Shown here piece after piece: positions 36,220-55,338 of a stretch of 55,338 bases of DNA; position 1 is the first letter of the stretch, and each line of letters opens with the position of its first letter. The notes below the pieces were generated by a model. That model worked only from the letters and a program-made list of their open reading frames with translations. It was not told the DNA's origin and did no database searches. The stretch spans positions 1 through 55,338 of the forward strand of contig LJVD01000016.1 of the NCBI GenBank assembly GCA_001304225.1. Reading direction: 5' to 3'. Position numbers and translations under genes: made by a program. This DNA comes from a candidate division Zixibacteria bacterium SM1_73 (lineage in GTDB: Bacteria; Zixibacteria; MSB-5A5; SM1-73).

Positions 36220-36277
36220 TGGTAAGATTGTATGAAAATAAATAGAGAGGGTCAAACCTGAAAGAAGTGGTCTTTGG

Positions 36278-38083
36278 ATGAAAAGAAAAATAAATGCATT
36301 TTTACTGACGTTTTTGCTCCTCTGCGGTTTTGCTGTTGCCGAGGAATCCTCTATCAGCATCCTTCCACTCGACCAGATAAAACCAGGTATGAAGGGGACG
36401 GGACGAACCGTTTTTAAGGGAGATAAGATCGAAGAGTTCGGTGTGGAGATCCTTGGAATCCTGCATAATTTTCAACCCAGACGAAATTTGATCCTTGCCA
36501 AGCTTGAAAGTGAAGTACTGGATGAAGCAGGCGTGATTGAAGGAATGAGTGGGAGTCCGGTTTATGTGGGTGAAAAACTCATCGGAGCCGTGGCCTATTC
36601 AGTCGGAGCTTTTGCCAAAGAAGCCATAGCAGGAATCACGCCCATCGGCGAAATGCTTGCCATTTCCCCTGAGAAAGGCCCTGCGTCCTCCTTTGCGCCA
36701 CGGATGCAGGTCTTAAGCCATTTGACCTTGGATGAGCTTTTTGAATTGAATAAGGAACGTTTCCAGCTCCCTTTAGCAGAAGCCGAGGGACGATTAGTGA
36801 AACCTTTGAGTATCCCTCTCGTTTTCAGCGGATTTTCTCCTTATGTATTTGAGAAGGCAAAAGCCAATTTCTCACGTATGGGTTTCACACCCATTCAATC
36901 AGGATCACAAGGGCAGATTCAGCCTGAAATGTCCTCCTCGGGCCTGACTCTTCAACCTGGATCTCCTATTGGTGTTCAACTCATCAAGGGAGACATAAAT
37001 GTTTCCTATTTGGGAACAGTAACTCATGTGGATGGAAATAGCGTCTTAGCCTTCGGACATCCTGTGTTTAACCTGGGTCCAGTCGATCTTGCGATGACCA
37101 AAGCGAGAGTGATAACTGTCCTGCCAAGCCTCATGCTGTCCTCCTGGTTGGCTGTCTCGGATGTTACTATCGGAAGGTTCGTACAAGACAGGACAGCGGG
37201 TATTCTTGGTGAGTTGGGCAAGATGCCTAAGTTCATCCCAATAAATTTCAAAATTCTGGATGTGGAATCCGGAGAAAGAGAATTTAAGATCCAGGTGGCC
37301 AATGACAAAATCCTGACTCCTTTCCTTGTTAATCTTGCTGCAGCCAGTGTTATATCATCAGAAGAGCGGGGGATTGGAGATCTGACTCTTGAACTGAATG
37401 GTGTCATCTATTTAGATAACGGTATGAATGTCCGGCTCGAAGACCTCTTTTCCGGGAATTTCGATATGGCTTCGACCAATTTGTCCGGCCTTGTCACAGC
37501 GGTCGTCTATATGCTAACCACAAATGAGTTCATAGAATTGGGCATTCACAGCATCGACCTCAACATAACAGTAGCCGAAGAAGTGAGATTCGCCTATCTT
37601 GAGAAAGTGTGGTTGGAGAAGTACGAAGCCTACCCGGGTGAGCGGGTGCGGATGAAAGTCTATTACAGGAATTTTAGAGGAAACACCGTAGAGGAAGAGT
37701 TCCCGCTTCCTATCCCTAACCTTCCTTCAGGATCGGAGTTCAGCCTGGTTGTTGGAGATGCTGTCTCCTTGCAGAGTATCGAGTTCCGCCAGTACAGGAC
37801 GACATCGTTTGTCCCACGAAGCCTTTATCAGCTTGTCAGAATGCTGAACAGTCTGAGGAGGCACAATTACATTTATTTCAAGATTATCGCAACCAAACCT
37901 GGCCTTTTTCTCCGAGGGGAAGAGATGCCGAATCTTCCACCAACCATGAAGTCCATGTTTTCCTCGCCGCGGGCGGCTTCATCTCCTCCTATAGAGATCA
38001 CCAGGTCTACTCTAGGCGAATACCGGCATGTTATCCCTTATGTTTTTAACGGCCTTGCCGTGATTCCGATCAAAATAAAATAA
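36278..38083 (+). CDS. SpoIVB-like peptidase S55 domain protein, exported
   Basis: Signal peptide; GMKG.G.TVF.G, EGMSGSPV (catalytic Ser motif), LIGAVAY, AFGHP, QDR.AGI.G. Confidence 0.88.
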   Translation: MKRKINAFLLTFLLLCGFAVAEESSISILPLDQIKPGMKGTGRTVFKGDKIEEFGVEILGILHNFQPRRNLILAKLESEVLDEAGVIEGMSGSPVYVGEKLIGAVAYSVGAFAKEAIAGITPIGEMLAISPEKGPASSFAPRMQVLSHLTLDELFELNKERFQLPLAEAEGRLVKPLSIPLVFSGFSPYVFEKAKANFSRMGFTPIQSGSQGQIQPEMSSSGLTLQPGSPIGVQLIKGDINVSYLGTVTHVDGNSVLAFGHPVFNLGPVDLAMTKARVITVLPSLMLSSWLAVSDVTIGRFVQDRTAGILGELGKMPKFIPINFKILDVESGEREFKIQVANDKILTPFLVNLAAASVISSEERGIGDLTLELNGVIYLDNGMNVRLEDLFSGNFDMASTNLSGLVTAVVYMLTTNEFIELGIHSIDLNITVAEEVRFAYLEKVWLEKYEAYPGERVRMKVYYRNFRGNTVEEEFPLPIPNLPSGSEFSLVVGDAVSLQSIEFRQYRTTSFVPRSLYQLVRMLNSLRRHNYIYFKIIATKPGLFLRGEEMPNLPPTMKSMFSSPRAASSPPIEITRSTLGEYRHVIPYVFNGLAVIPIKIK

Positions 38084-40314: not shown

Positions 40315-40878
40315 TCAGCCGCTCACCCGTTCGATGTAGGAATTGTCTCGGGTGTCTATTCTTACAATATCCCCTTCTTTTATGAACTGAGGGACTGTGA
40401 CTGTGATACCGGTTTGCAGAGTGGCTGGCTTGTTGCTGGCCGACTGAGTGGCCCCTTTGAGATAAGGTTCGGTTTTCACCACCTCCATGTCAATGGTTAA
40501 GGGGGGATTCACTCCCACAGGTTTTCCATCAGACATCTCAATCGAGAATGTCACATCGGATATGAGATAGTCCACAGAATCACCCAAAATATCTGGAGTA
40601 AGTTTTATCTGCTCATAATTTTCAAGATTCATAAAAACATAGGCATTCCCTTCCTGGTACAGGAATTGCATTTCAATCACTTCAAGATAAGCTTGTTCTA
40701 CCTTATCCTTGGAACGAAATCTGTGATCGTGCAGAGTTTGATCACTGAGCCGGCGAAGTTTTGTCTGCATCAGAGCCTGCCCCTTGCCCGGTGTCACATG
40801 CGTTGTCTCGAGCACCTTGTAGAGTCCATCTTCCAATTTTATGATCATTCCTTTTCTGATCTGTGTGGCGTTGATCAT
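40315..40878 (-). CDS. efp: Elongation factor P
   Basis: HVTPGKG loop, FRS.DK.E, F...E.YEQ, KPA.L.TG..V.VP.FI..G...IDTR. Confidence 0.97.
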   Translation of the reverse strand: MINATQIRKGMIIKLEDGLYKVLETTHVTPGKGQALMQTKLRRLSDQTLHDHRFRSKDKVEQAYLEVIEMQFLYQEGNAYVFMNLENYEQIKLTPDILGDSVDYLISDVTFSIEMSDGKPVGVNPPLTIDMEVVKTEPYLKGATQSASNKPATLQTGITVTVPQFIKEGDIVRIDTRDNSYIERVSG

Positions 40879-41875
40879 CTCTCCTCCTTTCGCTCTCTAT
40901 AGGGGGTAGGTTCAATGCGGGCTCCTTCATCCACACAGACGATGGCGCTCCTGCATTGAGCCCTTCCTCAATCATTTTATCTATTTTAGGAGTAGATGTT
41001 TGAATATAGTCTCTGAGCACAAGATGTTGTTGGGTAAGAAGTTGGCCAAATTCTTGGTGGTCGAACGTTTCTGATTCAAAGAGAGATTTTCCCTGTGCTG
41101 TCAGATCACGAGTCATCAGCGTTCCTTTGAGCAGCCTCTTGTTATCTGGAGGAAGGTTCTCGATTTGCTCCTGTTCCTTCTGGCCCAAAGGTTCCTTCAG
41201 ACTGAAACCTTCGATATTTTTGTGGATAATTTGCACCCCTTCAAGAACATGTGTTTTGATGTACCCGAGCATCCCTGTAGTGTCCTTTTTTTGGAGGGAA
41301 TTGGCAAGGACAAAGCGTTTCAATGGGTTTCTCAGTTTTGTCGCCTTCAACTCTCCCTCGAAGGAGACGTTGACAATACCCCCTAAAGAGGATGCATAGT
41401 GATCCATCTTTCCACCTGGCTCATTGAATTCGGCGACTTCGGTAAGAAATCCGAGCTCAGCTATGGTCTCAGGAACATTCAGCGTGTTGTCTTTTGCTGT
41501 TTCCAGCAAAAATTTTAACCATGCAATGACTAGAGCCGATGAGCTGGAGGTTCCTGCATTGATGGGGATAGTCCCATGGAGATGGCAGTCCCATCCGAAA
41601 GGGAACTGTATCCCTTTTCTTCTAAGAACATTGACCGCACTTTTGAGATAGTCCCGTTCTTTCTGATAAACCAGGTCTCCTTCAAGAGAGAATTCTTCTT
41701 TTTCACCTAAGTCAGGTAGACTGACCCTCATGATTTGGTCGTTTCTGCGCGTTCCCCGGATAAATATCCTTAAGTTAACAGCGGCAGCGATGATGGGCAA
41801 TGCAAAATAATCCTGGTGTTCGCCGAAAAGACAGATTCTTCCTGGTGCAGAGACAGAAATTTCATCATTCTTCAT
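40875..41875 (-). CDS. galK: Galactokinase/GHMP kinase with an internal deletion near the C-terminus (~40945)
   Basis: SAPGRICLFGEHQDY, IPINAGTSSSSA, GGKMDHY. The Gly-rich C-terminal motif is absent; the true end AIVCVDEGARIEPTPYRERKEER* is in another frame and its TGA overlaps the efp ATG. Confidence 0.8.
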
Positions 41876-42038: not shown

Positions 42039-42842
42039 GTGAGCGAGCTTTATTTTATCGGAACAGGAGGATCTGTCGCTACAGAGGACAGGGATAATAC
42101 ATCTTTTGTGCTTCAAACCCGAGAATCTTTGCTGTTGATCGACTGCCCGGGAAGTACGATACAGAAGCTGAAGAAGTTGAATTTTAATCCAAGAAGCATC
42201 AATGCTTTGTTAGTCACACATATCCATCCTGATCACATCTACGGATTGCCCTCTCTAGTACACAGCCTTATGTTAGATGAATGTCTTTTACGCATTTATG
42301 GATCAGAAGAAACAGTCCGTTTTTGTGCGGAATTACTCGATCTTTTTGACCTGCGGGCTGAAAAAGTCAAATGTCGGGTAGTTTTTATACCTGTAGAGGA
42401 CAGAGAGATTCAGCAGATATCACCATCGCTCAGCTGTACTTTTTTCAAAGTCCCTCACAGTCCTGAATCTATGGCTTTTCACTTTTACCTTGAGGAAGAA
42501 GGAATACATTTCATTTATTCTGGCGATACACCTGTCTATCCGATGCTGTTCCAGGAGGCTCTAAACACAGATTATCTGGTTCATGATTGCAGTGCACCTT
42601 CCCGATTTTTTCGAAAGTATCCATCGCTCCAATCCATGCACACAGATGCACTATCCTTGGGAAAACGTGCTCAGGAGGCTGGGGTGAAAAATCTTCTGCC
42701 CTGTCATTTTTTCGGTGAAATTGATTTCCCGCTCAAAGAGATAGAGGAGGAAATCAGAAGATATTTTCGCGGGAATTTAATCATTCCCGATGATTTTTCA
42801 AGAATTCCCTTGATTTCTGCAAGACGTAGAGTCATAAGTTGA
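42039..42842 (+). CDS. RNase Z-like MBL-fold metallo-hydrolase
   Basis: FIGTGG, IDC.G, THIHPDH, VPH, YSGDT, H...H, CHF. Confidence 0.85.
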   Translation: MSELYFIGTGGSVATEDRDNTSFVLQTRESLLLIDCPGSTIQKLKKLNFNPRSINALLVTHIHPDHIYGLPSLVHSLMLDECLLRIYGSEETVRFCAELLDLFDLRAEKVKCRVVFIPVEDREIQQISPSLSCTFFKVPHSPESMAFHFYLEEEGIHFIYSGDTPVYPMLFQEALNTDYLVHDCSAPSRFFRKYPSLQSMHTDALSLGKRAQEAGVKNLLPCHFFGEIDFPLKEIEEEIRRYFRGNLIIPDDFSRIPLISARRRVIS

Positions 42843-42937
42843 TAGATTAGGATGGTTGACCAGGATTTTGCTGAGCCAAGATCGCAATGAATAGGAATAA
42901 TTTCAATGAGGCGTATGAGATCCTTTAGGCGGAATAG

Positions 42938-44617
42938 ATGAAAGGCTTTTCGATCTTCATTATGACCGTGGTTTTTGTCATCGGGGCTTTCTGTCATAAA
43001 GAATCCGAGAGGGAAGTCGCTGATGTCGTTCTTCTCAACGGCATGGTCTGGACGGTAGACCCGGCGATACCTTGGGCGGAAGGGATTGCTCTCAAGGGGA
43101 ATAAAATTCTCAAGGTGGGATCTACATCAGAGATCAAAGGATATATCGGGGAGAGGACAAAGTCCATTGATTTGAAGGGATCCTTTGTGTTGCCTGGTTT
43201 TATAGACTGCCATACCCATTTCCTCGATGGGGGATTTTCCCTCTCCAGCGTTCAGTTAGGAAATGCTCGAACCAAGGATGATTTCATTGCCCGAATTGGA
43301 CAGAAGGCCCAGGAGCTTGGGCAGGGCGAGTGGATTCTTAGAGGGAACTGGGATCACCAGCAATTCGATCCTGTTGAGTTACCCAGGAAGGAATGGATTG
43401 ATGCTGTTACTCCTGACAATCCTGTTTGTGTGAACCGTCACGATGGACATATGGTCCTTGTGAACAGCCTGGCGCTGAAACTGTCCGGGATCACCAAAGA
43501 TTCAGCAGTACCGGAGGGAGGTGAAATCGTCAAAGATTCCCTGACAGGAGAACCAACCGGGATTCTTAAAGATGCAGCCATGGATCTTGTTATGGATCAC
43601 ATCCCAGAGCCTTCTCTCGAGGATAGATTAAGGGCAGTGGAAGCAGGTTTAGCACATGCTAAGAGTTGGGGAATAACCTCTATTCACGATATGGATTATA
43701 CGTCCAGCTTCGAGGTTTACGAGAATTTACTGGAACAGAACAAATTGACAGCTCGTCTCTATGTGTACATTCCCATCTCAGATGTCGAGCTTTTGTCCGA
43801 GCACAAGCTTGTTTCGCCACTTCAAAGTGATGTTTTAAGGATTGCTGGACTCAAAGGATTTGTGGATGGATCTTTGGGCTCCTCCACAGCGCTTTTTTTT
43901 GATCCCTATACAGATGATCCAACAAAGAGAGGGCTTCTGGCTTCAGACATGTTCCCTGAAGGAATCATGGAAAGGAGGCTCATGGAGGCTGATCGGTCAG
44001 GACTCCAAGTCGCCATCCATGCTATCGGAGACAAAGCGAACCATATGATCTTGGATATCTTCGAGAAGGTTATGCGTGCGAATGCCGACCGAGACCGAAG
44101 ATGGAGAATCGAGCATGCACAGCATCTTCTTCCCGAGGATATTGAGCGGATGAAAAAACTGAGGGTTATTGCTTCTGTCCAGCCCTATCATGCAGTGGAT
44201 GATGGACGGTGGGCCGAGAAAAAAATCGGAAAACAAAGAGCCCAATACACCTATGCGTTTCGCTCTCTTCTTGATGAAGGAGTACACTTGGCCTGCGGTT
44301 CGGATTGGACGGTTGCTCCGTTGAATCCGTTGACTGGAATCTTTGCGGCGGTCACCCGACAGACTCTGGATGGAAGAAATCCTGATGGTTGGATCCCTGA
44401 TCAAAAGATCAAATTAGAAGAAGCGATCAAAGGATATACCCTTCACGCAGCCTACACAGAATTTTCCGAACACAAAAAAGGCTCGTTGGAGGAGGGAAAA
44501 TTAGCGGATTTAGTTGTCCTCGATCAGAATTTGTTTGAAATTCCGCCTGAAAAAATATTGGAGACAGAAGTTCGGATGACCATCTTTAACGGCAGAATTA
44601 TCTACGAAAAACAATAG
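42938..44617 (+). CDS. YtcJ-like amidohydrolase, exported
   Basis: PGFIDCHTH, DGH, GEPTG, KGFVDGSLGS, HAIGD, RIEHAQ, GSDW, GKLAD. Confidence 0.93.
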   Translation: MKGFSIFIMTVVFVIGAFCHKESEREVADVVLLNGMVWTVDPAIPWAEGIALKGNKILKVGSTSEIKGYIGERTKSIDLKGSFVLPGFIDCHTHFLDGGFSLSSVQLGNARTKDDFIARIGQKAQELGQGEWILRGNWDHQQFDPVELPRKEWIDAVTPDNPVCVNRHDGHMVLVNSLALKLSGITKDSAVPEGGEIVKDSLTGEPTGILKDAAMDLVMDHIPEPSLEDRLRAVEAGLAHAKSWGITSIHDMDYTSSFEVYENLLEQNKLTARLYVYIPISDVELLSEHKLVSPLQSDVLRIAGLKGFVDGSLGSSTALFFDPYTDDPTKRGLLASDMFPEGIMERRLMEADRSGLQVAIHAIGDKANHMILDIFEKVMRANADRDRRWRIEHAQHLLPEDIERMKKLRVIASVQPYHAVDDGRWAEKKIGKQRAQYTYAFRSLLDEGVHLACGSDWTVAPLNPLTGIFAAVTRQTLDGRNPDGWIPDQKIKLEEAIKGYTLHAAYTEFSEHKKGSLEEGKLADLVVLDQNLFEIPPEKILETEVRMTIFNGRIIYEKQ

Positions 44618-44623
44618 AATCTA

Positions 44624-45604
44624 ATGATTTATGTTTATTTTCTAGCCTTTATCGTAGCCTTCGCAGTTCTTTTCAAGAGTGCTTCCCTTTTTGTTGAAGG
44701 GGCCTCAGGCATTGCTCAAGTTTTGAATGTCCCCAAGATGGTGATCGGAATAGTGTTGGTCGGCTTGGCAACTACGGCTCCTGAGTTCGGTGTGTCTTTC
44801 ATCGCAGCCATAATGGGCCAGCCAGAAATTGCTCTGGGAAATGCTATCGGATCTGTAATCTGTGATGATGGCGTAGCTCTGGCTCTGGCAGCTTTGCTGG
44901 CTCCTGCGGCAATCTCTGTAAACTGCCGACTGCTAAAATCAATCGGAGTGTTTCTGGTAGCTATCGATATCCTGGCCTACGGGCTAGCCAGGAACGGCAC
45001 AATCGGCAGACTGGAAGGTTTATGTCTTATCCTGATTCTCTGTGTTTACTATGTGTTTGTCTTAAGAAGTCAAAGAAGAAACATGAGGACCAGAAAGGTT
45101 AAGGAGCCCTTATCCGACTCAGATGAAGCACGCCCACAGCGCGAAAAAGAGGCCTTGAAACGGTTGGCCATTCGCTTTTTAGCCGGATTCTTTGGGGTGG
45201 CTGCCACCAGCTTCCTTATTGTTTGGGCGGCAAGAAACATAGCTTTACACTTTTCTGTTTCTGAAATCATCATCGGTTCAACTATCGTGGCGATCGGGAC
45301 CTCTCTGCCAGAAATCAGCACATGTATCACTGCTGCTTTAAAGGGAGAGGGGGAGATTGCCGTGGGGAACATAATTGGAGCGGACATTCTCAATATACTC
45401 TGGATCATAGGCATGGCTTCCTTAGCCAACCCGATAACAGTGGACCTGGATATCATTAATTTCTCATTTCCCTATATGATTCTGATAGTGGTAGTCATGC
45501 TGGTAAGTATGAGAATCGGGTGTCGGCTTGGAAAGGCAAAAGGATTGATCCTAATAGTCCTGTATGCTCTGTATGTCTTTCTGGTTTTAAGCATTTTTGT
45601 CTAA
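44624..45604 (+). CDS. Calcium/sodium antiporter (YrbG-like)
   Basis: Two alpha repeats: ATTAPE...GNAIGS and GTSLPE...GNIIGA. Confidence 0.92.
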   Translation: MIYVYFLAFIVAFAVLFKSASLFVEGASGIAQVLNVPKMVIGIVLVGLATTAPEFGVSFIAAIMGQPEIALGNAIGSVICDDGVALALAALLAPAAISVNCRLLKSIGVFLVAIDILAYGLARNGTIGRLEGLCLILILCVYYVFVLRSQRRNMRTRKVKEPLSDSDEARPQREKEALKRLAIRFLAGFFGVAATSFLIVWAARNIALHFSVSEIIIGSTIVAIGTSLPEISTCITAALKGEGEIAVGNIIGADILNILWIIGMASLANPITVDLDIINFSFPYMILIVVVMLVSMRIGCRLGKAKGLILIVLYALYVFLVLSIFV

Positions 45605-45648
45605 TTCCCTTTAGATCCAGCCTATCATCTGCTGAATCCCAAATTTTC

Positions 45649-45679
45649 TTGACTTAAAATATTGATTTGATATTATAAT
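45649..45679 (+). promoter_or_regulatory. sigma70-like promoter of the redox operon
   Basis: TTGACT-16-TATTAT with extended TG, and an overlapping TATAAT. Confidence 0.55.
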
Positions 45680-45694
45680 CAGTCCTTTGGGAGC

Positions 45695-46822
45695 ATGGAG
45701 GACGGCATGAATATTGGAGTCATCAACGAGAGCAACAAGATCGAAAATAGAGCGGGTCTCTCTCCCAGTGGCGTATCCTTTCTAGCCGAGAGAGGACATA
45801 CGGTCTATTTTCAGGCTGGAGCAGGACTGAAATCAGGATATTCGAACGAGGAATACACATCCCTTGGCGCGAATATTGTATTCACCAAAGAAGAGGCCTT
45901 CGGGCGTTCGGATATCGTTCTCAACATATCGCCTCTGGATGAGGAAGAATGTAAGCTGGTGAAAGCAAACCAGATCTTGTTCGGGTTTCATCATCTGGCA
46001 GTTTCTCGCAAATGCAATGTAGAGGATATGCTTAAGAAGAATGTCACTATGATAGGTTATGAAATTGTCCAGAAGGAGAATGAAGAACTCCCTTTTATTG
46101 AGAGCTTGAGTGAAATCGCAGGACAGATGTGTTTGGTCATATCAGGAAACTACCTTCAGACGAGCCAGGGAGGCCGCGGTCTTGTTATAGGGGGAGTGGT
46201 CAGTGTCCCCCCTGCAACTGCTGTTGTAATCGGTAGCGGGGTACTCGCGAAAAGTGCGATCAAAGCCATGCTTGGAGCAGGAGCGCAAACCATAGCCTTA
46301 GGGAGGGATATGGACAGGTTGAGAGAACTCGAAGAGATTACCTCAGGCAGATTGATTACTTTGATGGCCAGCCAGTATAACCTGGCGCGCATGGTGAAAG
46401 TTGCTGATATCCTGATAGGAGCTGTCCTTCTTCCGGGAGAAAAAGCGCCTGTTTTGATTACCCGTGACATGGTCAAATCCATGAAAAATGGATCTGTATT
46501 GATTGACCTGGCTATCGATCAGGGAGGCTGTTCTGAAACTTCCCGATTGACTACCCTTGAACATCCGACTTATGTTGATGAGGGCGTCATACATTATTGT
46601 GTCCCTAACATCACATCCACAGTAAGCCGGACCTCCACAAAGGTTCTATCGAACATGGTTGTTCCCTACTTGCTCGATATTGCGGATGGGGGGATCGACC
46701 AGACTTTGAAGGAAAATACATCTCTAGCTCGAGGAGTGTATGTATATAATGGAAATCTTGTCAAGAAGGGTGTTGCCGAGAGATTTTCTATGCCCTACAA
46801 AGAGCTCTCTTCTTTATTATAA
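45695..46822 (+). CDS. ald: Alanine dehydrogenase-like protein (atypical active-site and cofactor residues)
   Basis: ENR..LSP, GAG..SG, HLA, SEIAG, GG.G...GG, IGAVL.PG.KAP, DLAIDQGGC.ETS, HYCVPN. Confidence 0.82.
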   Translation: MEDGMNIGVINESNKIENRAGLSPSGVSFLAERGHTVYFQAGAGLKSGYSNEEYTSLGANIVFTKEEAFGRSDIVLNISPLDEEECKLVKANQILFGFHHLAVSRKCNVEDMLKKNVTMIGYEIVQKENEELPFIESLSEIAGQMCLVISGNYLQTSQGGRGLVIGGVVSVPPATAVVIGSGVLAKSAIKAMLGAGAQTIALGRDMDRLRELEEITSGRLITLMASQYNLARMVKVADILIGAVLLPGEKAPVLITRDMVKSMKNGSVLIDLAIDQGGCSETSRLTTLEHPTYVDEGVIHYCVPNITSTVSRTSTKVLSNMVVPYLLDIADGGIDQTLKENTSLARGVYVYNGNLVKKGVAERFSMPYKELSSLL

Positions 46823-46837
46823 AAAACAGGTTTTAAG

Positions 46838-47252
46838 ATGAAAAAATTATTAACCGAATCCGAAGCCAATCAAAGAGACCTCATTCATATTCTTCATAAG
46901 GTACAGGCCGAAATGGGCTATATCTCCCCAGAAGCCATTGCTGCTATTTCTAAACATCTGAAGATCTCGGAGAATGAGATCTATGGTGTTCTCACTTTCT
47001 ATAAAGCTTTTAGCCTTAAACCCAGAGGTGAACATCTGGTCACGATTTGTATGGGAACTGCCTGCCATGTAAGAGGAGCCCCAAGGATATTGGATGAATT
47101 CAAACGGGGTCTTTGCATCGAACCAGGAGAAACCTCAGAGGATAATCTGTTTACTCTAGAAACGGTCAATTGTGTCGGAGCATCATGGACAGTTGAAGAC
47201 CAGAGATGTGGACAAGCTGATCGGCGAAATAAAGAAAAATTCAAAGGAATAA
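46838..47252 (+). CDS. nuoE: NuoE/HydC-like 2Fe-2S subunit with internal deletion at ~47183
   Basis: V.TFY..F...PRG, CMGTACHVRG, TLETVNCVGA; resumes in another frame as HGQLKTRDVDKLIGEIKKNSKE*. The fourth Cys is missing. Confidence 0.85.
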
Positions 47253-47278
47253 AACGGGAAGGGAACAGTATAAAAAAA

Positions 47279-49191
47279 ATGGAAAAGATCAACGCGACAA
47301 GATTAGAAGAACTCAAAGCGGAAATCCTTGATTCTCGCAAGGACCAGAAGACCTGTATTACGGTATGTGGAGGCACAGGCTGTCATGCCTCGGATGTCTT
47401 CAGATTGCAGATGCTTTCAGGGATGAGGTTAAGAGGCAGAAGCTGAAAGCCACGGTTGACGTGAGAACCACGGGGTGTCATGGTTTTTGTGAGAGGGGCC
47501 CGATTACAGTGATTCAACCTGATGGGATTTTTTATCAGAGAGTAAAGCTTGAAGATGTGGCAGAGGTTGTGACTGAAACCATTAGGAACAAAAAAATCAT
47601 CGACCGCCTTCTGTACATTGATCCACGAACTGGGAAGAAGATCATCAAGGAAAAAGAAGTTCCCTTTTATAAAAAACAGAAAAGGATCATATTCGGAAAC
47701 AATGGTTTCATCGATCCCACGGATATAGAGGATTATATTGCTTTGGATGGTTACAAAGCCCTGGCCAAGGTCCTCTTTGATATGACGGCTGATGAGGTCA
47801 TCGCCGAGGTCAAAGATTCTGGACTCAGGGGCAGAGGAGGAGCAGGATTTCTAGCTGGCCTCAAGTGGGAGATCTGCCGCAATGTCAGTTCCGATGTGAA
47901 ATACATCATCTGCAATGCGGATGAAGGAGATCCTGGGGCCTATATGGACCGGAGCCTGTTGGAGGGCAATCCGCACAGTGTCATCGAAGGCATGATCATC
48001 GGCGCCTATGCCATAGGGGCGTCCGAGGGATACATCTATGTTCGAATGGAATACCCTCTGGCCGTCAAAAATATCACCCTCGCTCTTGAACAGGCAAGAG
48101 AAATGGGTTTTCTTGGGGACTCTATCCTCGGATCTGAGTTCAGCTTCGATATCCATGTTTTCAAAGGGGCTGGAGCCTTTGTCTCCGGGGAAGAAACATC
48201 CATGATGGCCTCGATTGAGGGACGCCGGGCCTTCCCGCGTCAGAGGCCTCCTTTTCCTGCCCAGGAGGGTCTTTGGGGAAAGCCCACCAATATCAACAAT
48301 GTGGAGACGTGGGCCAATATTCCTCTTATCTTGAATAAAGGTGCCGATTGGTATTCCCATATTGGGACCAGGAAGAGCAAGGGAACAAAGATCTTCTCCC
48401 TGGTTGGGAAGATCAACAACACGGGTTTGGTCGAGGTCCCGATGGGTATCTCCCTGAGGGAGATCATTTATGAGATCGGGGGGGGGATAAAAGATGGAAA
48501 AAAGTTCAAGGCTGTCCAGACAGGAGGTCCTTCAGGTGGATGTATTCCTGCGGATATGCTCGATCTAACGATAGATTTTGACACCTTGACCAAAGCAGGA
48601 TCTATGATGGGATCGGGTGGAATGATCGTCATGGATGAGGACACCTGTATGGTGGACGTTGCCCGATATTTTCTTGAATTTACTCAGGAAGAATCCTGTG
48701 GAAAGTGTGTGCCCTGTCGAGTAGGAACAAGACAGCTGGTGGAAATTTTGACCCGCATCACCAAGGGAAGGGGAGAGGAGAGAGATATCCAGAAACTTCA
48801 GGATCTGGCAAAGACGATAAAAGCCGGTTCCCTCTGCGGATTAGGGCAAACAGCTCCCAATCCCGTGCTGACCACTCTTCGCTATTTCGAGAACGAATAC
48901 GAGGCCCATATCAATCAAAAGAGTTGTCCTGCGCTCGTTTGCAAGGATTTGATCATTTACCATATCGATCCAAAAAAGTGTGTGGGTTGTCTCTTGTGTT
49001 TGAAGAACTGTCCGGTAGATGCCATAAGCGGAGAGCGGAAACAAGTTCATGTGATTGACCAGGACCTGTGCATTAAATGTGGAGCATGTTTGGATGTCTG
49101 TCCGCCTAAAGTCAGTGCTGTCGTCAGATACACTGGAAAGAAGAAAGAGAGAGTTTTAAAAAACGTTCAGTCGAAAAGAGCAAAGAAATGA
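47279..49191 (+). CDS. nuoF: NuoF/HydB(BfuB)-like FMN/NADH subunit, 1-nt frameshift at ~47390
   Basis: MEKINAT...CGGTGCHA|GC...TTGCHGFC (2Fe-2S), GRGGAG, NADEGDPGAYMD, GEET, GGPSGG, CGKC.PC, H....CP...C, C-terminal 2x[4Fe-4S]. Confidence 0.92.
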
Positions 49192-51622
49192 AAGTAATCA
49201 TTGACGGAAAAAAGCTGGAAGCCGACGGTCACAAAACGATATTAGAAACGGCGCGGGAAAGCGATATATTCATTCCTTCACTTTGCGATCACCCTCAACT
49301 TTTACCCTTCGGCGGGTGTCGGCTCTGTATCGTTGAAATCAAGGGACGTAAGGGGCTTGTTCCTTCATGCAGTACCTATCCCGAAGAGGGGATGGAGGTG
49401 AAGACCGATTCTGCGAATCTCCGCAGGATGAGGAAACAGATATTGGGACTCATCCTCTCAGAGCATCCTGATGCCTGTTTGATCTGTTCTGAAAAGGAAA
49501 ATTGCGACGAGTACAAATCCACTATCCGCAGATCGATAAGATAGATTTCCCCTCGGTTTACCGAGATTACGAGGTCAGGAGAGATGACCCATTCTTTGAC
49601 CGGAACTATAACCTGTGCATCCTTTGTGGACGTTGTGTCAGAGTCTGTCATGAAATCAGAGGTGCCTCCACAGTCACCTTCGTCTTCCGGGGATCCCATG
49701 CTGTAGTGGGGACTGTTTTGGATCGACCTTTACAGGAGGTTGGATGCCAGTTTTGCGGTGCATGTGTGGATGTCTGTCCCACAGGAGCTTTAACCGAAAG
49801 AGCCATTAAGTATGAGCCCTTACCCGATGACCAGGCCAAGACCATCTGCCCTCTTTGCAGTATGGGGTGCGAGTTGGACGTGATGCTGAACAAAGGACGG
49901 ATATTGAGCACTCGGCCTTCCAAAGAAGGAGCCGTTAACCTAGGGCAGGCCTGTGTCAAAGGACGTTTCGCGATCAAAGACACAGTTTATAGTTCCCAAC
50001 GAATCCTCAAACCAATGATCCGACGAAGAAAAGAACTCGAGGAGGTCTCTTGGGACGAAGCCTTGGATTTTGTGGCCCAACGGCTCAAGTCTTATAAAGG
50101 AAAAGAGATCGGTTTGATCCAGTCTCCCCAGATCTCTTGTGAAGGCAATTTTCTTGTGGAGAGATTCGCTCGAGAGGTTGTCAAGTCCCAAAATGTAGAC
50201 TTCTCAACAGGAATCTCACCCCTGGAAGCCTTTTATGAGACAGCACACAAAGACAAAGTCAAACCTCGGTTCAATTTTAAAAGAGAAGAAATCTCTGAAG
50301 CCGATGTAATCCTTCTTGCAGGATTGAATTTGGCCGTTTCCCATCCCATCCTTTGGCTGGAGGTATTGAAAGCTGTCCGGAAGGGAACAAAACTTATCAT
50401 GGTCAGCCCTGATGAGCCTCTGGGTGGTCGTCATACGACCGTGTGCCTCCGAGTGAAGCCTGGATCAGAAGCTTCGTTATTCAATTATCTCTCTAAAAGA
50501 CTTCTGAAAGATGAGCAGGCTGATGGGCGTGTGCTCGAAGGACAAGAATTTTTCACGACAGATTTGGCCAAGCTTACCGCGGCTAAGGTCGTGGAATCTA
50601 CAGGGATTGACGAAAACACGCTAAACTATGCGGCAAGGCTCCTCTCGGAAGGCAAGTCTTGTTTCATTTTCGGAATGGGATTGATCCAAGATTCCAGGAT
50701 CGAGCAGAATCTGGCAGCACTTTGGAATCTTGCCCTTCTGAACAAGGGCCGGATTATTCCTTTGGGATTGGAAACTAACAGCAGAGGCCTTTTTGAAATA
50801 AAACGGAAGTCTGGGCAAAAAACAAAACCTTTTGACCAAATCGTGCAGGAGGTCAAGGGAGGACAGATAAAAGCACTGTATTTATTCGGTCCGGTTCCAG
50901 GTAACAAGAAGTTAAAAACAGAGTTTTTGGTTGTTCAGGACAGCTACCTCAATAAGATGTCAGAGAGGGCGGATGCTGTGTTTCCGGCTGCCACTTTTGC
51001 AGAATCAGATGGAATGTTTGTCAATGTAGAGGGAAGGATGCAGAGTTTCCACAGGGTCATCGAGCCCCTCGGGGATGCAAAGCCTGATTGGTGGATTGTT
51101 TCACAACTGGCCCTTAGATGGGGGAAAAAAGATTTTTTATATAAAAAATCTTCAGATATTTTGAGAGAATTGAAAAAAGCGATTCCAGCTTTTTCCAAGG
51201 TCAGTACATCGGCTCAGAAAGGAGGGCTGCCTCGCTTTATCCAGGAATCCGATAAGGAGAAAGAGAAATTCATGCCGCTTAAATACCAAGAAAGAACTGA
51301 GCTAACCAGCAAAACGTACCCTTTCCTTCTCGGTTCGGAATACAACCTGGATTATTACAGGAGCCTTATCTTATCCGATGAAATAAAGGGATTTGAAATC
51401 ATCAGAAATCCTCGATGGTTCAAGTTGAATCCCAAAGACGCCAAGAGGTTGGATCTAGAAGATGGAGATGAGGTTGAGGTCGTCTCCCCCGTAGGAAAGA
51501 TCAAGGGAATCATCAGAAACACAGATTCTGTTCCTGAAGGCATGGTGAGATCCTGTCTTTTCTGGATCGAGGAGCCAAGTTCCAGTCCCCTTCTTCCAGT
51601 TAAAATTAAAAGAGGAAAATAA
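49188..51622 (+). CDS. NuoG/FdhA-like FeS subunit with a molybdopterin-fold domain lacking the Mo ligand; deletion at ~49530
   Basis: 2Fe-2S (LC...GGCRLC...C), H...C..C, two CxxCxxC, CPLCSMGC...C, then NVDFSTGISP (no C/U-H); joins ORFs 49188-49544 and 49502-51622. Confidence 0.85.
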
Positions 51623-52455
51623 TGGCTAAGATACTAAAAAGAGAACGGCTTGTTCCAAATATTCATCTCATCGAAGTCGAAGCTCCGGAAATCGTTCGCA
51701 AATGCCGACCCGGACAGTTTGTCATCGTCATGCCTGATGATAAAGGAGAACGGATCCCGTTGACCATCGCGGATTGGGATATTCAGAAAGGTTCGATCAC
51801 TTCAATTTTTTTAGTGGTAGGAACCTCAACTCATAAGCTTGCCAATCTTCATGCGGGAGATGAAGTTCCTGTCTTTGTTGGGCCTCTAGGAAAACCCTCT
51901 GAGATCGAAAAATTCGGGACGGTACTTTGTGCTGGCGGCTGTTTTGGAATCGCTGCCATCTATCCCATAGCTCGTGCTCTGAAAGAAAAAGGCAACAAGG
52001 TCATTACCCTGCTGGATGTCAAGGCGAATTACCTCCTTTACTGGGAGGATAAACTAAGGGCGGTGAGCGACCATTTCAGCATCTCCAGCCGGGATAATTA
52101 TTATGACTGCAAAGAATACATCCCTTACTCCCTTAAGAATATTCTTAAGAAAGAAAAGAATATCGATCGAGTGGTATCCATCGGATGCACCTATCTCATG
52201 TATACCTGTGCCGAAGCAACAAGGTTGCACGAGATCAAGACCATGGTAAGCCTCAATCCGATCATGGTAGACGGTACTGGAATGTGTGGGGCGTGCCGTG
52301 TGACTGTAGGTGGCAAGACCAAATTCGCCTGCGTGGATGGACCGGATTTTGATGGTCATCTCGTTGATTGGGATGAGCTTTTCATGAGAAGAAAATCCTA
52401 TTTCGATGATGAAATCCAGTCCATGTGTTATTGGGAAAGGAAGAATTTTCCCTGA
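51622..52455 (+). CDS. nfnA: NfnA (sulfide/dihydroorotate dehydrogenase-like electron transfer subunit)
   Basis: PGQFVI, ERIPLTIAD, GPLG, SLNPIMVDGTGMCGACRV..FACVDGP; TAATG overlap with the upstream gene. Confidence 0.9.
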   Translation: MAKILKRERLVPNIHLIEVEAPEIVRKCRPGQFVIVMPDDKGERIPLTIADWDIQKGSITSIFLVVGTSTHKLANLHAGDEVPVFVGPLGKPSEIEKFGTVLCAGGCFGIAAIYPIARALKEKGNKVITLLDVKANYLLYWEDKLRAVSDHFSISSRDNYYDCKEYIPYSLKNILKKEKNIDRVVSIGCTYLMYTCAEATRLHEIKTMVSLNPIMVDGTGMCGACRVTVGGKTKFACVDGPDFDGHLVDWDELFMRRKSYFDDEIQSMCYWERKNFP

Positions 52456-52480
52456 AAGTTAAAACAGAAAAGAGCAAAAA

Positions 52481-53986
52481 ATGGCTGAGAACAAAAAAGA
52501 AATGCCTCCAGAGCTGAAAGAAAGACTGCGGGCCGGCTTCAACCTCGATTGGCGCAAGGAGCTGCGGAAATCTCTCCCTGTCAAGGAAAGGATGAAGATC
52601 AAGCGCCAGAAAATGCCAGAGAGAAGTCCTGAAGTGCGGAACCAGGATTTTTTTGAAGTAAACAAAGGCTTAGAAGCAAGGGCAGCCGTAGAAGAAGCCA
52701 AGAGATGCCTGGATTGTGCAAATCCTCAGTGCGTAATGGGTTGTCCCGTTGGCATAGATATTCCCACCTTCGTGAAAATGGTCGAAATCGGCGACTTCGA
52801 AAAGAGTATACGCAAGATCAAGGAAACCAATGCGCTTCCTGCCATATGCGGTCGAGTCTGCCCCCAAGAGACCCAGTGCGAGGTTGTGTGCAACCTGAAA
52901 AAGGCCACGGGTACGCCGGTGGCTATAGGGAATCTAGAGCGATTCGTGGCTGATTATGAAAGGGACAAAGGGGAGATGTTTATTCCTTCCCTTCCCTCAT
53001 CAACTGGGAAAAAAGTGGCGATTATTGGCTCCGGTCCTGCCGGCCTCACTGTAGCCGGAGATTTGGCTCTCAAGGGGCATCAGTGCACGATTTACGAGGC
53101 ACTTCATGTCCCAGGCGGTGTGTTGTGGTACGGCATCCCTGAATTCAGGCTGCCCAAGAATATATTGGAAGCCGAGGTAGATTATCTTGGAAAGTTAGGT
53201 GTCGAACTGAAGACCAATTTTGTCGTGGGGTTGACAGCCACTCTCGATGATCTTCGTGAAGAAGGATATGATGCCTTTTTCGTCGGCACTGGGGCTGGAT
53301 TGCCGAATTTCATGCGGATACCAGGGGAGAATCTGATCGGAGTCTATTCGGCGAATGAATATTTAACCCGGGTCAATCTGATGAGAGCCTTTGCCTTCCC
53401 AGAGTATGATACTCCGGTCTATCTGGGGAAGAAGGCTGTTGTCCTCGGAGGCGGTAATGTGGCCATGGATTCGGTTCGGACGGCAAAACGACTTGGCGCT
53501 GTGGAATCGACAATTGTATACCGCCGCTCGAGAGTGGAAATGCCGGCAAGGATCGAAGAGGTGCATCATGCCGAGGAAGAAGGCATCGTGTTTCATTTTC
53601 TGACCACTCCTATTCGGTTCATCGGAGATGACAAGGGATGCGTCAAGGCCATGGAGTGCATCCAGATGGAACTCGGTGAACCGGATGCATCAGGCCGGCG
53701 CCGACCCATTCCTATAGAAGGCTCGGAATTCATCATGGAAACAGATCTGGTCGTGGTAGCTATTGGAAACAGTCCCAATCCTCTGATCCCCCAGACAACT
53801 CCTCAATTGAAGGTGGGAAAATGGGGAAACATCGAAGTCAATTGGGATACTATGGAGACCAGTATGAAGGGTGTCTATGCTGGAGGGGATATCATCCGTG
53901 GAGGAGCGACAGTCATTCTGGCCATGGGAGATGCCCGGATAGCTGCCAATGAAATAGACAAATACCTTCAAAACCATAAAAAATAG
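52481..53986 (+). CDS. nfnB: NfnB (GltD/SudA-like NADPH-binding flavo-FeS subunit)
   Basis: RCLDC...C..GCP, CGRVCPQE.QCE..C, ERF, GSGPAGL, YGIPEFRLP, GGGNVAMD, YRR, AGGD..RG.ATVILAM. Confidence 0.92.
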   Translation: MAENKKEMPPELKERLRAGFNLDWRKELRKSLPVKERMKIKRQKMPERSPEVRNQDFFEVNKGLEARAAVEEAKRCLDCANPQCVMGCPVGIDIPTFVKMVEIGDFEKSIRKIKETNALPAICGRVCPQETQCEVVCNLKKATGTPVAIGNLERFVADYERDKGEMFIPSLPSSTGKKVAIIGSGPAGLTVAGDLALKGHQCTIYEALHVPGGVLWYGIPEFRLPKNILEAEVDYLGKLGVELKTNFVVGLTATLDDLREEGYDAFFVGTGAGLPNFMRIPGENLIGVYSANEYLTRVNLMRAFAFPEYDTPVYLGKKAVVLGGGNVAMDSVRTAKRLGAVESTIVYRRSRVEMPARIEEVHHAEEEGIVFHFLTTPIRFIGDDKGCVKAMECIQMELGEPDASGRRRPIPIEGSEFIMETDLVVVAIGNSPNPLIPQTTPQLKVGKWGNIEVNWDTMETSMKGVYAGGDIIRGGATVILAMGDARIAANEIDKYLQNHKK

Positions 53987-54037
53987 GACATAACTCTCAA
54001 AAGCCATACATCTGGGTTGGAGATAAGGGAGGCTTAA

Positions 54038-55336
54038 ATGCCTTGGGTAGATGATTACAAAAAAAAGTTAGTGACTGCCGAAGAGGCGGTTTCGGCGATC
54101 AAGAGCCACGATCGTGTCTATATCAGTGGAAATGCAGCCACACCTTACGTGTTGATGAATGCCTTGGCTTCGAAGAAAGACGAACTGGAGGATGTCGAGC
54201 TGGTTCACGTGCTCTTGATGGGAGACGACCCCCTATCGAAGCCAGAGATGGAGGGGCATTTCCGTCACAATTCACTTTTTGTGGGTCCTGCCGACAGGCG
54301 GGCCATAAACGAGGGAAGGGCGGATTACGTCCCCATATTTCTGCATCAGATTCCCAACCTGTTCTATTCTGGGCAGATGCCGATCGATGTGGCAATGCTT
54401 CATCTTTCCCCTCCTGATGAGCATGGTTTTATGAGCTATGGCGTCGAGGTTCTGGCTTCCAAAGGAGCGGCTGAGACAGCCAAAATCGTCATCGCTCAAG
54501 TCAACGAGAAAATGCCCCGTGTCTTGGGAGATTCCTTCATCCACGTCTCCCGCGTGCACAAGATTGTCGAGATTTCAGAAGACCTCCCCCAACTGGAAAA
54601 GAAAGCTTTCACTGAGGTCGAACGCAAGATCGGACATTTCATCGCTGAACTCATCGATGATGGATCCACGCTCCAATTGGGTATCGGAGGAATACCGGAT
54701 GCAGTTTTATCGGCTCTCAAAGGAAGAAAAGATTTGGGCGTCCATACCGAGATGGTTTCCGACGGCGTGATGGAAGCCATAGAGTCAGGAATCATCACAG
54801 GAGCGAAAAAGACCTTTCATCCATACAAAGTTATTCTGACCTTTATGCTGGGGTCGAACAGACTGTATGATTTTGCCGATAATAACCCGATATTTGAAGC
54901 GCACCCTACAGATTATACGAATCATCCGTTCAAGGTCGCCCAAAACGATAACATGATCGCCATCAATTCTGCGATCGAAGTGGATATCTCTGGACAGGTG
55001 TGTTCGGATTCGATCGGAACATACATCTACAGCGGGTTTGGTGGTCAGGTGGATTTCATCCGGGGAGCTGCCCATTCAAAAGGGGGAAAACCCATAATAG
55101 CCCTTCCTTCTACAGCCAAGGGGGATGAAGTGTCCCGGATCGTTCCCTTCCTCAAAAAAGGGGCAGGAGTCGTGACAACCCGGGCGGATGTCACATACAT
55201 CGTGACAGAATATGGTGTGGCGTATCTCCACGGAAAAAATCTTCAAGAGAGAACCAAAGCACTCATCGAAATCGCCCATCCTAAGTTTAGAGATGATTTA
55301 GTCAAGGAAGCCAAGGAGCGGCACCTCCTGACCTGA
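54038..55336 (+). CDS. 4-hydroxybutyrate CoA-transferase / acetyl-CoA hydrolase-transferase family
   Basis: GRADY.P, SPPD.HG, LQLGIG.IP, HTEM (catalytic Glu), SG.GGQ.DF.RGA, TEYG.A.L.G, IAHP.FR. Confidence 0.93.
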   Translation: MPWVDDYKKKLVTAEEAVSAIKSHDRVYISGNAATPYVLMNALASKKDELEDVELVHVLLMGDDPLSKPEMEGHFRHNSLFVGPADRRAINEGRADYVPIFLHQIPNLFYSGQMPIDVAMLHLSPPDEHGFMSYGVEVLASKGAAETAKIVIAQVNEKMPRVLGDSFIHVSRVHKIVEISEDLPQLEKKAFTEVERKIGHFIAELIDDGSTLQLGIGGIPDAVLSALKGRKDLGVHTEMVSDGVMEAIESGIITGAKKTFHPYKVILTFMLGSNRLYDFADNNPIFEAHPTDYTNHPFKVAQNDNMIAINSAIEVDISGQVCSDSIGTYIYSGFGGQVDFIRGAAHSKGGKPIIALPSTAKGDEVSRIVPFLKKGAGVVTTRADVTYIVTEYGVAYLHGKNLQERTKALIEIAHPKFRDDLVKEAKERHLLT

Positions 55337-55338
55337 GA

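Follow-up and report, generated by a model that had tools for sequence, protein, structure and literature searches.

In acetogens and Thermococcaceae, NfnSL and Stn/NfnABC are described as almost mutually exclusive alternatives (PMC10482914, PMC7483475, PMC12018979), and NfnSL and this Bfu-type Nfn have been presented as unrelated solutions to the same reaction (PMC10482914, PMC11829005, PMC7483475, PMC12018979). As described there, Stn has no NfnA homologue and Nfn has no HydBC homologue (PMC10482914, PMC7483475, PMC12018979), and StnC and the NfnA subunit of NfnABC carry an NfnL-like domain inserted in a NuoG/Fdh-like protein with a dead pterin site (PMC10482914, PMC11829005). Here, we describe an operon at positions 45695 to 55336 of contig LJVD01000016.1 (candidate division Zixibacteria bacterium SM1_73, assembly GCA_001304225.1); the whole stretch of DNA that was analyzed, 55,338 nucleotides long, is referred to as the window. 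Judged by sequence, the core of this operon is BfuC-BfuB-BfuA plus NfnA-NfnB. We propose that the operon consists of two nested modules, an outer sensor/CoA-transferase pair and an inner bfuC-bfuB-bfuA-nfnA-nfnB set, and we hold with moderate confidence that the inner products form one complex. These five proteins are most likely one soluble NAD(H)/NADP(H)/ferredoxin oxidoreductase of the Bfu family, the complex itself being what we infer from the evidence below.

The operon comprises seven open reading frames (ORFs), all on the + strand, whose products were named by Pfam and NCBIfam profile searches. They are listed here together with the promoter-like site that precedes them.

45649-45676, + strand, promoter-like site TTGACT-16-TATTAT with an upstream TG (consensus match only)
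45695-46822, + strand, alanine dehydrogenase (AlaDH)-like protein without the catalytic Lys (ADLP type), 375 aa (Pfam AlaDh_PNT_N/C)
46838-47252, + strand, bfuC (nuoE/hydC-like, 2Fe-2S), broken (Pfam 2Fe-2S_thioredx)
47279-49191, + strand, bfuB (nuoF/hydB-like), broken (Pfam Complex1_51K, SLBB, NADH_4Fe-4S and C-terminal 2x[4Fe-4S])
49188-51622, + strand, bfuA (NuoG/FdsA-like, pterin site degenerate), broken (Pfam and PDB alignment to FdsA 6tg9_A)
51622-52455, + strand, nfnA (NfnS-type, FAD/NAD domain and 2Fe-2S), intact, 277 aa (NF004862)
52481-53986, + strand, nfnB (NfnL-type, with two 4Fe-4S clusters, FAD and NADPH), intact, 501 aa (TIGR01316)
54038-55336, + strand, CoA transferase of the 4-hydroxybutyrate or butyryl-CoA:acetate type, 432 aa (Pfam AcetylCoA_hydro and AcetylCoA_hyd_C)

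As seen, the spacing from the first to the last gene is 15, ~26, -4, -1, 25, and 51 nt, with bfuB (nuoF) and bfuA (nuoG) overlapping by ATGA and bfuA and nfnA overlapping by TAATG. The ORF coordinates reproduce the seven co-oriented genes and both overlaps that a first-pass annotation of this DNA had proposed; two of its gene boundaries were corrected, since bfuC (nuoE) really ends at 47252 and bfuB really starts at 47279. The promoter-like site, which ends 19 nt 5' of the first ATG, is the top match within positions 42700 to 55338, and 19 promoter-like consensus sites were found against 15.0 ± 4.0 in shuffled sequences.

The best match of BfuB was subunit B of the NiFe-Bfu enzyme of Acetomicrobium mobile (7t2r_B, 843.9 bits over 549 residues). 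The other solved bifurcating Bfu B subunits compared (hydrogenases, StnB, and NfnB of NfnABC) gave 673 to 781 bits, and NuoF of complex I gave about 400 bits or less. By Pfam and motifs, BfuB carries the FMN/NADH domain, an N3-type cluster, the Cys/His site, and a C-terminal 2x[4Fe-4S] domain, and the N-terminal thioredoxin-like 2Fe-2S domain was detected by Pfam in the relative at locus L001. In the Bfu classification, a bifurcating BfuB is marked by the N-terminal 2Fe-2S domain, together with the Cys/His site and the two-cluster domain at the C-terminus (PMC9304861). These scores and domains bear out the earlier suggestions that NuoF is of the long HydB type and that the nuoEFG-like genes encode a Bfu-type (HydBC-like) module. 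A complex I N-module (NuoEFG) was rejected, given the extra domains of NuoF, its TIGR01959 score of 508.9 bits, under the cut-off of 558.65, and the lack of other nuo genes among the 47 ORFs scanned in the window.

BfuA, in turn, resembles a formate dehydrogenase (FDH) subunit without its catalytic site. A Pfam scan detected Fer2_4, Fer4_Nqo3, Molybdop_Fe4S4, and a weak Molybdopterin match, together with the His-cluster motif, and no hydrogenase, Pyr_redox, or Fer4_20 domain. The closest PDB sequence was FdsA (6tg9_A, 277 bits), and the predicted fold matched the alpha subunit of NAD-dependent FDH with a TM of 0.71 to 0.73. In the 6tg9_A alignment, the Mo-ligand Cys386 of FdsA and the adjacent His387 fall on Ser/Pro in BfuA; there is no in-frame TGA at this position, and none of the 18 Aminicenantes/Elusimicrobiota homologues has a Cys in the Mo-ligand stretch. 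The G subunit had been described as catalytically empty, with neither an H-cluster nor a Mo ligand, and the Pfam and 6tg9_A results agree. A true formate dehydrogenase or hydrogenase was rejected on the lost Mo ligand, the TIGR01591 score (291 bits against a cut-off of 666), and the absent hydrogenase domain. BfuA retains both clusters of its ferredoxin-like domain, as type 3 Bfu enzymes do (PMC9304861), and the Cys and His ligands of the 2Fe-2S, His-ligated 4Fe-4S, and ferredoxin-like clusters are invariant in 44 sequences.

In addition, BfuA contains a tandem repeat of the motif [His/Glu]-x3-Cys-x2-Cys-x5-Cys, located at residues 93 to 106 and 118 to 131 of P0001, an intact 837-aa protein about 100% identical to the BfuA of the window. 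The repeat does not vary among 44 homologues, 124 of the 150 best family representatives have it, and it coincides exactly with the point at which the NfnL-like domain is inserted in StnC and in NfnA of NfnABC. This tandem motif may bind an extra iron-sulfur cluster. In the window, the second copy was removed by a 79-nt deletion, and the remaining part lies at 49464 to 49528. Two relatives have other architectures: P0249 (1405 aa) consists of a complete BfuA-like protein and, after it, the beginning of a second copy, and P0307 (1365 aa) has the Stn-like order of 2Fe-2S domain, NfnL-like domain, and Fdh-like domain with strong Mo-domain scores and may be an NADPH-linked molybdoenzyme.

A further relative, from a Nitrospirota genome (L080:7983-10739), has a Cys at the Mo-ligand place, followed by Tyr and not His, and its BfuA scores 263 bits for Molybdopterin and 113 bits for Molydop_binding. 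In this locus, NfnAB follows BfuA at larger gaps, and NfnB has no N-terminal extension. The L080 BfuA is, from these features, probably of a functional molybdoenzyme type, and L080 may represent a catalytic ancestor-like state.

The Cys and the strong Mo-domain scores of L080, which imply that the ancestor was probably a molybdoenzyme, lend something to the view that the NuoEFG-like module serves a partner encoded elsewhere (complex I-type, hydrogenase, or true FDH), with NfnAB as a bystander. Docking of a Bfu module on a partner of this kind is known from Nuo-Bfu, NiFe-Bfu, and Fdh-Bfu (PMC9304861). However, the partner genes described in that classification share the bfuABC cluster (PMC9304861), and here no such gene was at hand: membrane Nuo, hydrogenase, and FDH catalytic genes were absent from Pfam scans covering 47 ORFs chosen from the 55-kb window, as had been noted before for the membrane Nuo subunits, and from the 4 kb 3' of the CoA transferase gene in the related loci L001 and L061. 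Furthermore, the upstream neighbors in most loci encode an amidohydrolase and a Na/Ca exchanger. We consider a remote partner very improbable.

The two genes that follow bfuA encode NfnAB, which is by sequence complete and competent. NfnA scored 363.6 bits on NF004862 (cut-off 220) and matched the small subunit of Pyrococcus NfnI (5jca_S) at 317.5 bits and the Thermotoga protein at 228 bits. NfnB scored 605.2 bits on TIGR01316 (cut-off 471.75) and matched Thermotoga NfnB (4ylf_B) at 545.4 bits and the large subunit of Pyrococcus NfnI at 523 bits. The NfnB Arg aligned with the Arg of PEFRLP in Thermotoga and Pyrococcus, as well as the cluster motifs (CPQE..QCE), is invariant in 47 sequences; the Arg beside the FAD and the Glu of the cluster motif, a non-Cys ligand of the proximal cluster, have been tied to autonomous bifurcation in NfnB (PMC10482914). 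The family cut-offs, the PDB alignments, and the invariant ligands thus confirm the complete, separate NfnAB of the first-pass annotation.

These same properties suit another explanation, in which two independent enzymes are co-transcribed: an ordinary NfnAB and a separate BfuABC that share pools of NADH, NADPH, and ferredoxin, with BfuABC working alone or with an unknown substrate. NfnAB scores above the curated family cut-offs, lies at about the distance from the Thermotoga and Pyrococcus enzymes that would be expected between those two, and keeps the PEFRLP-aligned Arg and the cluster motifs invariant. Moreover, nfn genes occur in varied clusters elsewhere (PMC6405883), and in Margulisbacteria/Saganbacteria, fdhA and nuoE/F-like genes near nfn were treated as separate enzymes in 2019 (PMC6349859). 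Against this, a BfuABC with an empty A subunit has no third substrate of its own, and the gene order, the natural fusions, and the NfnA sequence described below also speak against it.

The gene order was surveyed in the best 80 of 576 loci encoding a BfuA relative, chosen by BfuA likeness and nearly all of one phylum. The homologues came almost all from metagenome-assembled genomes (MAGs) of Candidatus Aminicenantes, and the redox block was also found in two Elusimicrobiota MAGs and one Nitrospirota MAG. NfnA and NfnB lay 3' of BfuA on the same strand in all 61 loci that extended 2.6 kb or more downstream, NuoE and NuoF lay 5' of BfuA in all 67 loci with room, and the 1-nt overlap between the BfuA stop and the NfnA start was conserved in 46 of 73 loci. 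Eight loci have the redox block without the outer pair. A synteny comparison of the flanks of the relatives, with nine window proteins as queries, found only the neighbors represented among those queries. The survey of gene-order conservation that had been proposed for this operon therefore came out in its favor, with NfnAB after BfuA wherever there was room, a linkage that speaks against two merely co-transcribed enzymes.

Stronger evidence for the pairing than the linkage came from natural fusions between BfuA and NfnA. In a search space of 1.84 billion proteins, from which the best 150 representatives of the BfuA family were analyzed, 3 of the 150 carried a C-terminal NfnA domain, 40 to 45% identical to the NfnA of the window. 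Two of these fusions are colinear over 1080 aa at 45% identity, and a search with the junction region of one fusion returned 103 fusions among the best 120 matches. By name, their sources are Asgard archaea (Lokiarchaeota, Thorarchaeota, Helarchaeota, and Promethearchaeota) and five bacterial groups (Planctomycetota, Kiritimatiellae, Desulfobulbus, Syntrophales, and Hydrogenedentes). The fusion proteins (P0294, P0311, P0361, and P0398-P0501) are 825 to 1100 aa long and are mostly annotated as 'sulfide/dihydroorotate dehydrogenase-like FAD/NAD-binding protein'. For one fusion, an AlphaFold2 model based on 89 aligned fusions had a pLDDT of 86.6 and a pTM of 0.85 over 1080 residues, a pTM that would be hard to reach if a domain of 290 residues were randomly placed. 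The BfuA-NfnA fusions favor a contact between NfnA and BfuA and point to the C-terminal end of BfuA as the neighbor of NfnA. Together with the linkage in 61 of 61 loci, this family indicates that the pairing of Bfu and Nfn is not an accident of this genome, and such numerous, conserved fusions speak against two independent enzymes.

The sequence of NfnA itself points the same way. The glycine-rich loop at residues 105 to 109 of NfnA has Cys and Phe/Tyr where NfnA that stands alone, as in Thermotoga and Pyrococcus, or is fused to NfnB has Gly-Val, and this loop is part of the dinucleotide site in the ferredoxin-NADP reductase fold. The Cys at the third place of the loop was present in 47 of 47 NfnA proteins of this arrangement and in 89 of 89 fused NfnA domains, and in 0 of 16 NfnA-NfnB fusions. 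The signature is thus common to the BfuA-NfnA fusions and absent from canonical NfnA, in disagreement with an ordinary NfnAB, and its position suggests that NAD(H) binding by NfnA may be altered. In an unrooted tree of NfnA domains, the Aminicenantes group formed a clade with a support of 100, and the NfnA-NfnB fusion group formed a clade with a support of 99.9.

Some loci have unusual forms of BfuB. In L044:4850-8005, L048:4850-8005, L067:4853-8005, and L076:4841-7993, BfuB is about 1050 aa long and has a GltD/NfnL-like module (Fer4_20 and Pyr_redox_2; checked by Pfam in L044 and L067) in place of the C-terminal ferredoxin domain, with BfuA, NfnA, and NfnB still following. BfuB has no C-terminal ferredoxin-type domain in L056:6449-8005 and L066:4333-6054 (checked by Pfam), and the domain is probably also absent in L058, L064, L068, L072, and L078, where the tblastn matches are shorter.

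NfnAB was retained in all of these BfuB variant loci. The C-terminal ferredoxin-type domain is held to be essential for ferredoxin reduction in the structural papers on BfuB; if ferredoxin cannot dock on a BfuB of this kind, the clusters of NfnB would be the obvious alternative site, which suggests an electronic coupling between the two parts. That relatives in which this domain was lost or replaced by a GltD-like module still keep NfnAB is again unexpected under two separate enzymes, an explanation that we consider rather unlikely on the whole.

Several observations weigh against a single complex. NfnB resembles stand-alone NfnB (545 bits) far more than it does the NfnL-like domains of Bfu enzymes (314 to 349 bits), and, since it keeps the Arg and Glu linked to bifurcation, it could work alone. 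NfnA and NfnB have no added domain save the 37-aa N-terminal extension of NfnB, which is conserved in Aminicenantes-type loci and absent in L080. This extension aligns to the linker of NF009414, a model of fused NfnA-NfnB, and need not be a docking element; a role as a Bfu docking peptide was for this reason not adopted. The loci were picked by their BfuA likeness and belong nearly all to one phylum, so that the linkage partly reflects shared descent, and the fusions are known here from proteins alone and can at most be presumed to partner with BfuB and BfuC. Elsewhere, nfn genes are reported in varied clusters that include one beside a multimeric FeFe hydrogenase (PMC6405883). Finally, the Bfu half of the operon (bfuC, bfuB, and bfuA) is broken in the window. 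Co-folding of NfnA, NfnB, and residues 1 to 222 of BfuA, with custom alignments and without controls, gave 0.31 and 0.29 against a mark of 0.32 and counts neither way; the N-terminal part of BfuA that was used has an AlphaFold2 pLDDT below 50, and its choice may have been poor.

Taken together, the linkage in 61 of 61 loci and the fusions keep the view of the first-pass annotation, an empty Bfu module wired to NfnAB, as the best reading; its five-subunit complex and its double bifurcation are steps that we infer from there. In the complex that we propose, BfuBC would be the FMN/iron-sulfur bifurcating core, linked to NAD(H) and ferredoxin, and BfuA would serve as a formate-dehydrogenase-like wire with its pterin site lost. 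NfnAB, of the canonical sequence type, would sit on BfuA as the module for the third substrate, NADPH, and the assembly would fall under type 3 of the Bfu classification (PMC9304861). The role of NfnAB would then parallel that of the NiFe hydrogenase subunits in NiFe-Bfu and of the fused NfnL-like domain in Stn/NfnABC. Two electron routes between NfnAB and BfuA can be envisaged: one from the flavin or 2Fe-2S cluster of NfnA to the cluster beside the dead pterin pocket, and another from the distal cluster of NfnB to the ferredoxin-like domain or the extra cluster site of BfuA. These cofactor contacts are conjectural, as is the placing of both bifurcation centers, the NfnB FAD and the flavin-cluster site of BfuBC, in one electron path.

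With working potentials of -280 mV for NADH, -380 mV for NADPH, and -500 mV for ferredoxin (PMC9304861), a series connection in which the low-potential branch of Nfn feeds Bfu would correspond to 4 NADPH + 3 NAD+ + Fd(ox) = 4 NADP+ + 3 NADH + Fd(red, 2 e-). As an illustrative electron count, this reaction would have a greater NADPH-oxidizing driving force than the plain Nfn reaction. In its boldest form, the proposal is a single soluble machine in which the NfnB FAD and the FMN-cluster center of BfuBC are joined by an iron-sulfur wire, with NfnA passing electrons to the pterin-less BfuA, instead of or besides NAD+. Together with its relatives in which BfuA and NfnA are fused, found in Asgard archaea and several bacterial phyla, it would represent a widespread, undescribed class of transhydrogenase and the evolutionary link between NfnSL and Stn/NfnABC. 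We put this forward tentatively and regard it as somewhat unlikely in this full form.

The breaks in the Bfu genes were analyzed against the closest locus, L001, at the DNA level and against the intact protein P0001. In bfuC, a 38-nt deletion between 47181 and 47182, visible in the DNA alignment against L001, L003, and L061, shifts the frame and removes the fourth Cys of the 2Fe-2S site; the Pfam 2Fe-2S_thioredx match covers only profile positions 2 to 116 of 145, and the BfuC of L001 (150 aa) covers the full profile. In bfuB, a 1-nt deletion near 47390/47391 shifts the frame. In bfuA, the 79-nt deletion lies between 49528 and 49529 and removes 26 residues, among them three Cys that are invariant in 44 homologues. 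A selenocysteine behind the break in bfuA was ruled out, as the break is a change of frame caused by this deletion. In the relatives, NuoE has 144 to 158 aa in most loci, NuoF about 637, NuoG 817 to 860, NfnA 277, and NfnB about 500, the short and fused BfuB variants excepted. As its sequence is written, this copy would allow only NfnAB, the sensor, and the CoA transferase to be produced.

It may be, then, that the Bfu half is truly dead in this organism, the three deletions being real and NfnAB alone remaining, a situation compatible with the other explanations. All three deletions break the frame and strike three adjacent genes, with the removal of invariant cluster ligands; those of 38 and 79 nt exceed typical read errors, and the truncated product of the window's own bfuB (P0127, 560 aa) is present in the protein set. 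Nevertheless, intact proteins about 100% identical to those of the window occur on other contigs: the BfuA P0001 on 2 contigs and the 637-aa BfuB, at 100% identity, as P0121 on 7 contigs and as P0122. The broken genes have no further decay, and 1-nt frameshifts occur in at least two further genes of the window, as expected of a generally error-prone sequence. A dead Bfu half is a distinct possibility, although we lean towards an intact one.

The two frameshifted genes lie outside the operon. In the TrkA-type K+ channel gene at 2987 to 3999, the TrkA_N match ends at profile position 83 of 116 and resumes in another frame near 3570, and the NAD-dependent epimerase gene at 35244 to 36360 is split by a 1-nt frameshift near 36020. 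These genes indicate that the sequence of the window is error-prone or decaying beyond the operon. Two further ORFs were also irregular. The beta-lactamase-family ORF at 15814 to 16707 matches only profile positions 188 to 318 of 329; the N-terminal half of the domain is absent, with no open frame for it upstream. The galactokinase/GHMP-kinase ORF at 40315 to 41875 on the - strand overruns the start of the EF-P gene by 137 nt with a low-complexity tail, and its true stop may have been lost through another frameshift.

The outer genes of the operon form a different kind of module. Lys73 of Thermus AlaDH (2eez) aligns to Ile in the first protein, and this catalytic-Lys column is I, V, or L in 55 of 55 homologues (the window and all 54 loci with the gene); the protein scored 359.4 bits on TIGR00518, below the cut-off of 391.85. 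An alanine dehydrogenase feeding NADH to the redox module was ruled out, since the catalytic Lys is missing in all 55. The last protein matched the CoA transferase of Thermus thermophilus (9vag_F) at 628.7 bits, and the PDB entries 9wns and 9wnu contain the Thermus CoA transferase together with an 'alanine dehydrogenase' chain. In Thermus, this partner (ADLP) is a catalytically dead AlaDH-like protein with another residue in place of the catalytic Lys; it binds NAD+ and NADH, and in its NAD+-bound form, it inhibits the butyryl-CoA:acetate CoA transferase (CoAT). The ADLP and CoAT genes are adjacent in Thermus, Ignavibacterium, Melioribacter, and Roseiflexus (all from bioRxiv 10.1101/2025.10.31.685773).

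In the window, a Lys-less AlaDH-like gene and a homologous CoA transferase gene lie in one operon without being adjacent. In 50 loci with room, both outer genes were present in 41, both absent in 8, and one alone in 1, so that 49 of 50 were concordant. Given the missing catalytic Lys and the match of the CoA transferase to Thermus, the most fitting reading of the two outer genes is a sensor and its enzyme, placed on either side of the redox block. By analogy, the AlaDH-like protein is likely the NAD(H) sensor of the CoA transferase: the dead protein would bind NAD+/NADH and throttle the enzyme, as its Thermus thermophilus homologue does. The operon had earlier been placed in a frame of amino-acid fermentation, with the AlaDH-like protein as a dehydrogenase; the loss of the catalytic Lys in 55 of 55 and the match to the Thermus regulatory pair leave that frame unsupported. 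The arrangement suggests that short-chain acyl-CoA turnover is co-expressed with the NADH/NADPH/ferredoxin balance, and in Aminicenantes, the proposed complex would stand under the same promoter as an NAD+/NADH-sensing CoA-transferase switch.

Around the operon, the redox content appears to stop at the end of the window, since the next genes downstream in the relatives L001 and L061 encode RNase HII and an AlaX-like protein. On the 5' side, positions 42938 to 45604 encode, on the same strand, an Amidohydro_3 protein (559 aa) and a Na/Ca exchanger family protein (326 aa); the same pair lies 5' of the operon in most related loci, and a redox link is not obvious. An Rfam scan found a single tRNA, distant from the operon.

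A conserved operon that combines a full NfnAB with a HydBC-like core and a dead Fdh-like wire does not fit the picture of NfnSL and Stn as alternatives, and neither does a large fusion family with the wire and NfnA in one polypeptide. A BfuABC with a separate NfnAB is not described in section 5 of the Bfu classification (PMC9304861), and the literature searched holds no description of a BfuABC+NfnAB complex or a NuoG-NfnA fusion, although the supplementary Bfu clade tables of PMC9304861 may list this type. The arrangement is therefore new relative to the literature searched, and the Bfu core and NfnAB are themselves known. If the five proteins do form one complex, it would join the unproven Bam-Bfu as a second candidate in which two bifurcating modules operate in series, and it would offer a concrete route for the origin of the fused Stn enzymes. 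In that case, it would also stand as a major redox hub in Aminicenantes and perhaps in Asgard archaea, both abundant among uncultured anaerobes. The outer pair would extend a regulation so far shown only in Thermus to another phylum and tie it to NADH/NADPH/ferredoxin balance.

Compared with known systems, the outer pair resembles the Thermus TtCoAT-ADLP pair in that both genes lie in one transcription unit. In Thermus and the other genera named above, however, the two genes are adjacent, whereas in the window five redox genes lie between them. The AlaDH-like protein of the window scored 313 bits against a true alanine dehydrogenase and 250 bits against the Thermus ADLP, and this closer score to the true enzyme implies that the loss of the Lys may be independent.

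The NfnAB of the window has all cluster and flavin motifs in common with those of Thermotoga maritima and Pyrococcus furiosus. It differs from them in the Cys-Phe/Tyr loop of NfnA and the 37-aa extension of NfnB, and, while those enzymes stand alone, the nfn genes of the window are translationally coupled to bfuA. For Bam-Bfu (benzoyl-CoA reductase class II), a BfuABC wired to a second bifurcating module, HdrA, has been proposed (PMC9304861); its second module, substrates, and subunit set are other than those of the window, and bifurcation in that system is itself undemonstrated.

Stn/NfnABC, the type 1 Nfn-Bfu of Sporomusa ovata, Caldicellulosiruptor saccharolyticus, and Thermococcus sibiricus, shares with the window a HydBC-like bifurcating core, a NuoG/Fdh-like subunit with a dead pterin site, and an NfnL/GltD-type NADPH-FAD module with two 4Fe-4S clusters. 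BfuB of the window scored 715 to 745 bits against its B subunits, and BfuA (as P0001) scored 235 bits against 9bov_A. In Stn/NfnABC, however, the NfnL-like domain is fused inside BfuA, is itself non-bifurcating, and is described without an NfnA homologue (PMC10482914), whereas the NfnB of the window is separate and of the canonical, autonomously bifurcating sequence type, with a full NfnA beside it. Membership in type 1 was rejected, because NfnA and NfnB are separate genes and BfuA has no Pyr_redox or Fer4_20 domain.

The closest solved BfuB, at the 843.9 bits given above, is that of the type 3 Bfu enzyme NiFe-HydABCSL of Acetomicrobium mobile. Its BfuA has a cofactor-less NuoG-like C-terminal domain and both ferredoxin-like clusters, and the BfuA of the window is alike, with 208 bits over residues 121 to 674 against 99 to 665. 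In NiFe-HydABCSL, the catalytic module comes from two extra subunits, a NiFe hydrogenase (PMC9304861); in the window, the extra subunits would be NfnA and NfnB, which, unlike those of NiFe-HydABCSL, would themselves be a complete bifurcating enzyme.

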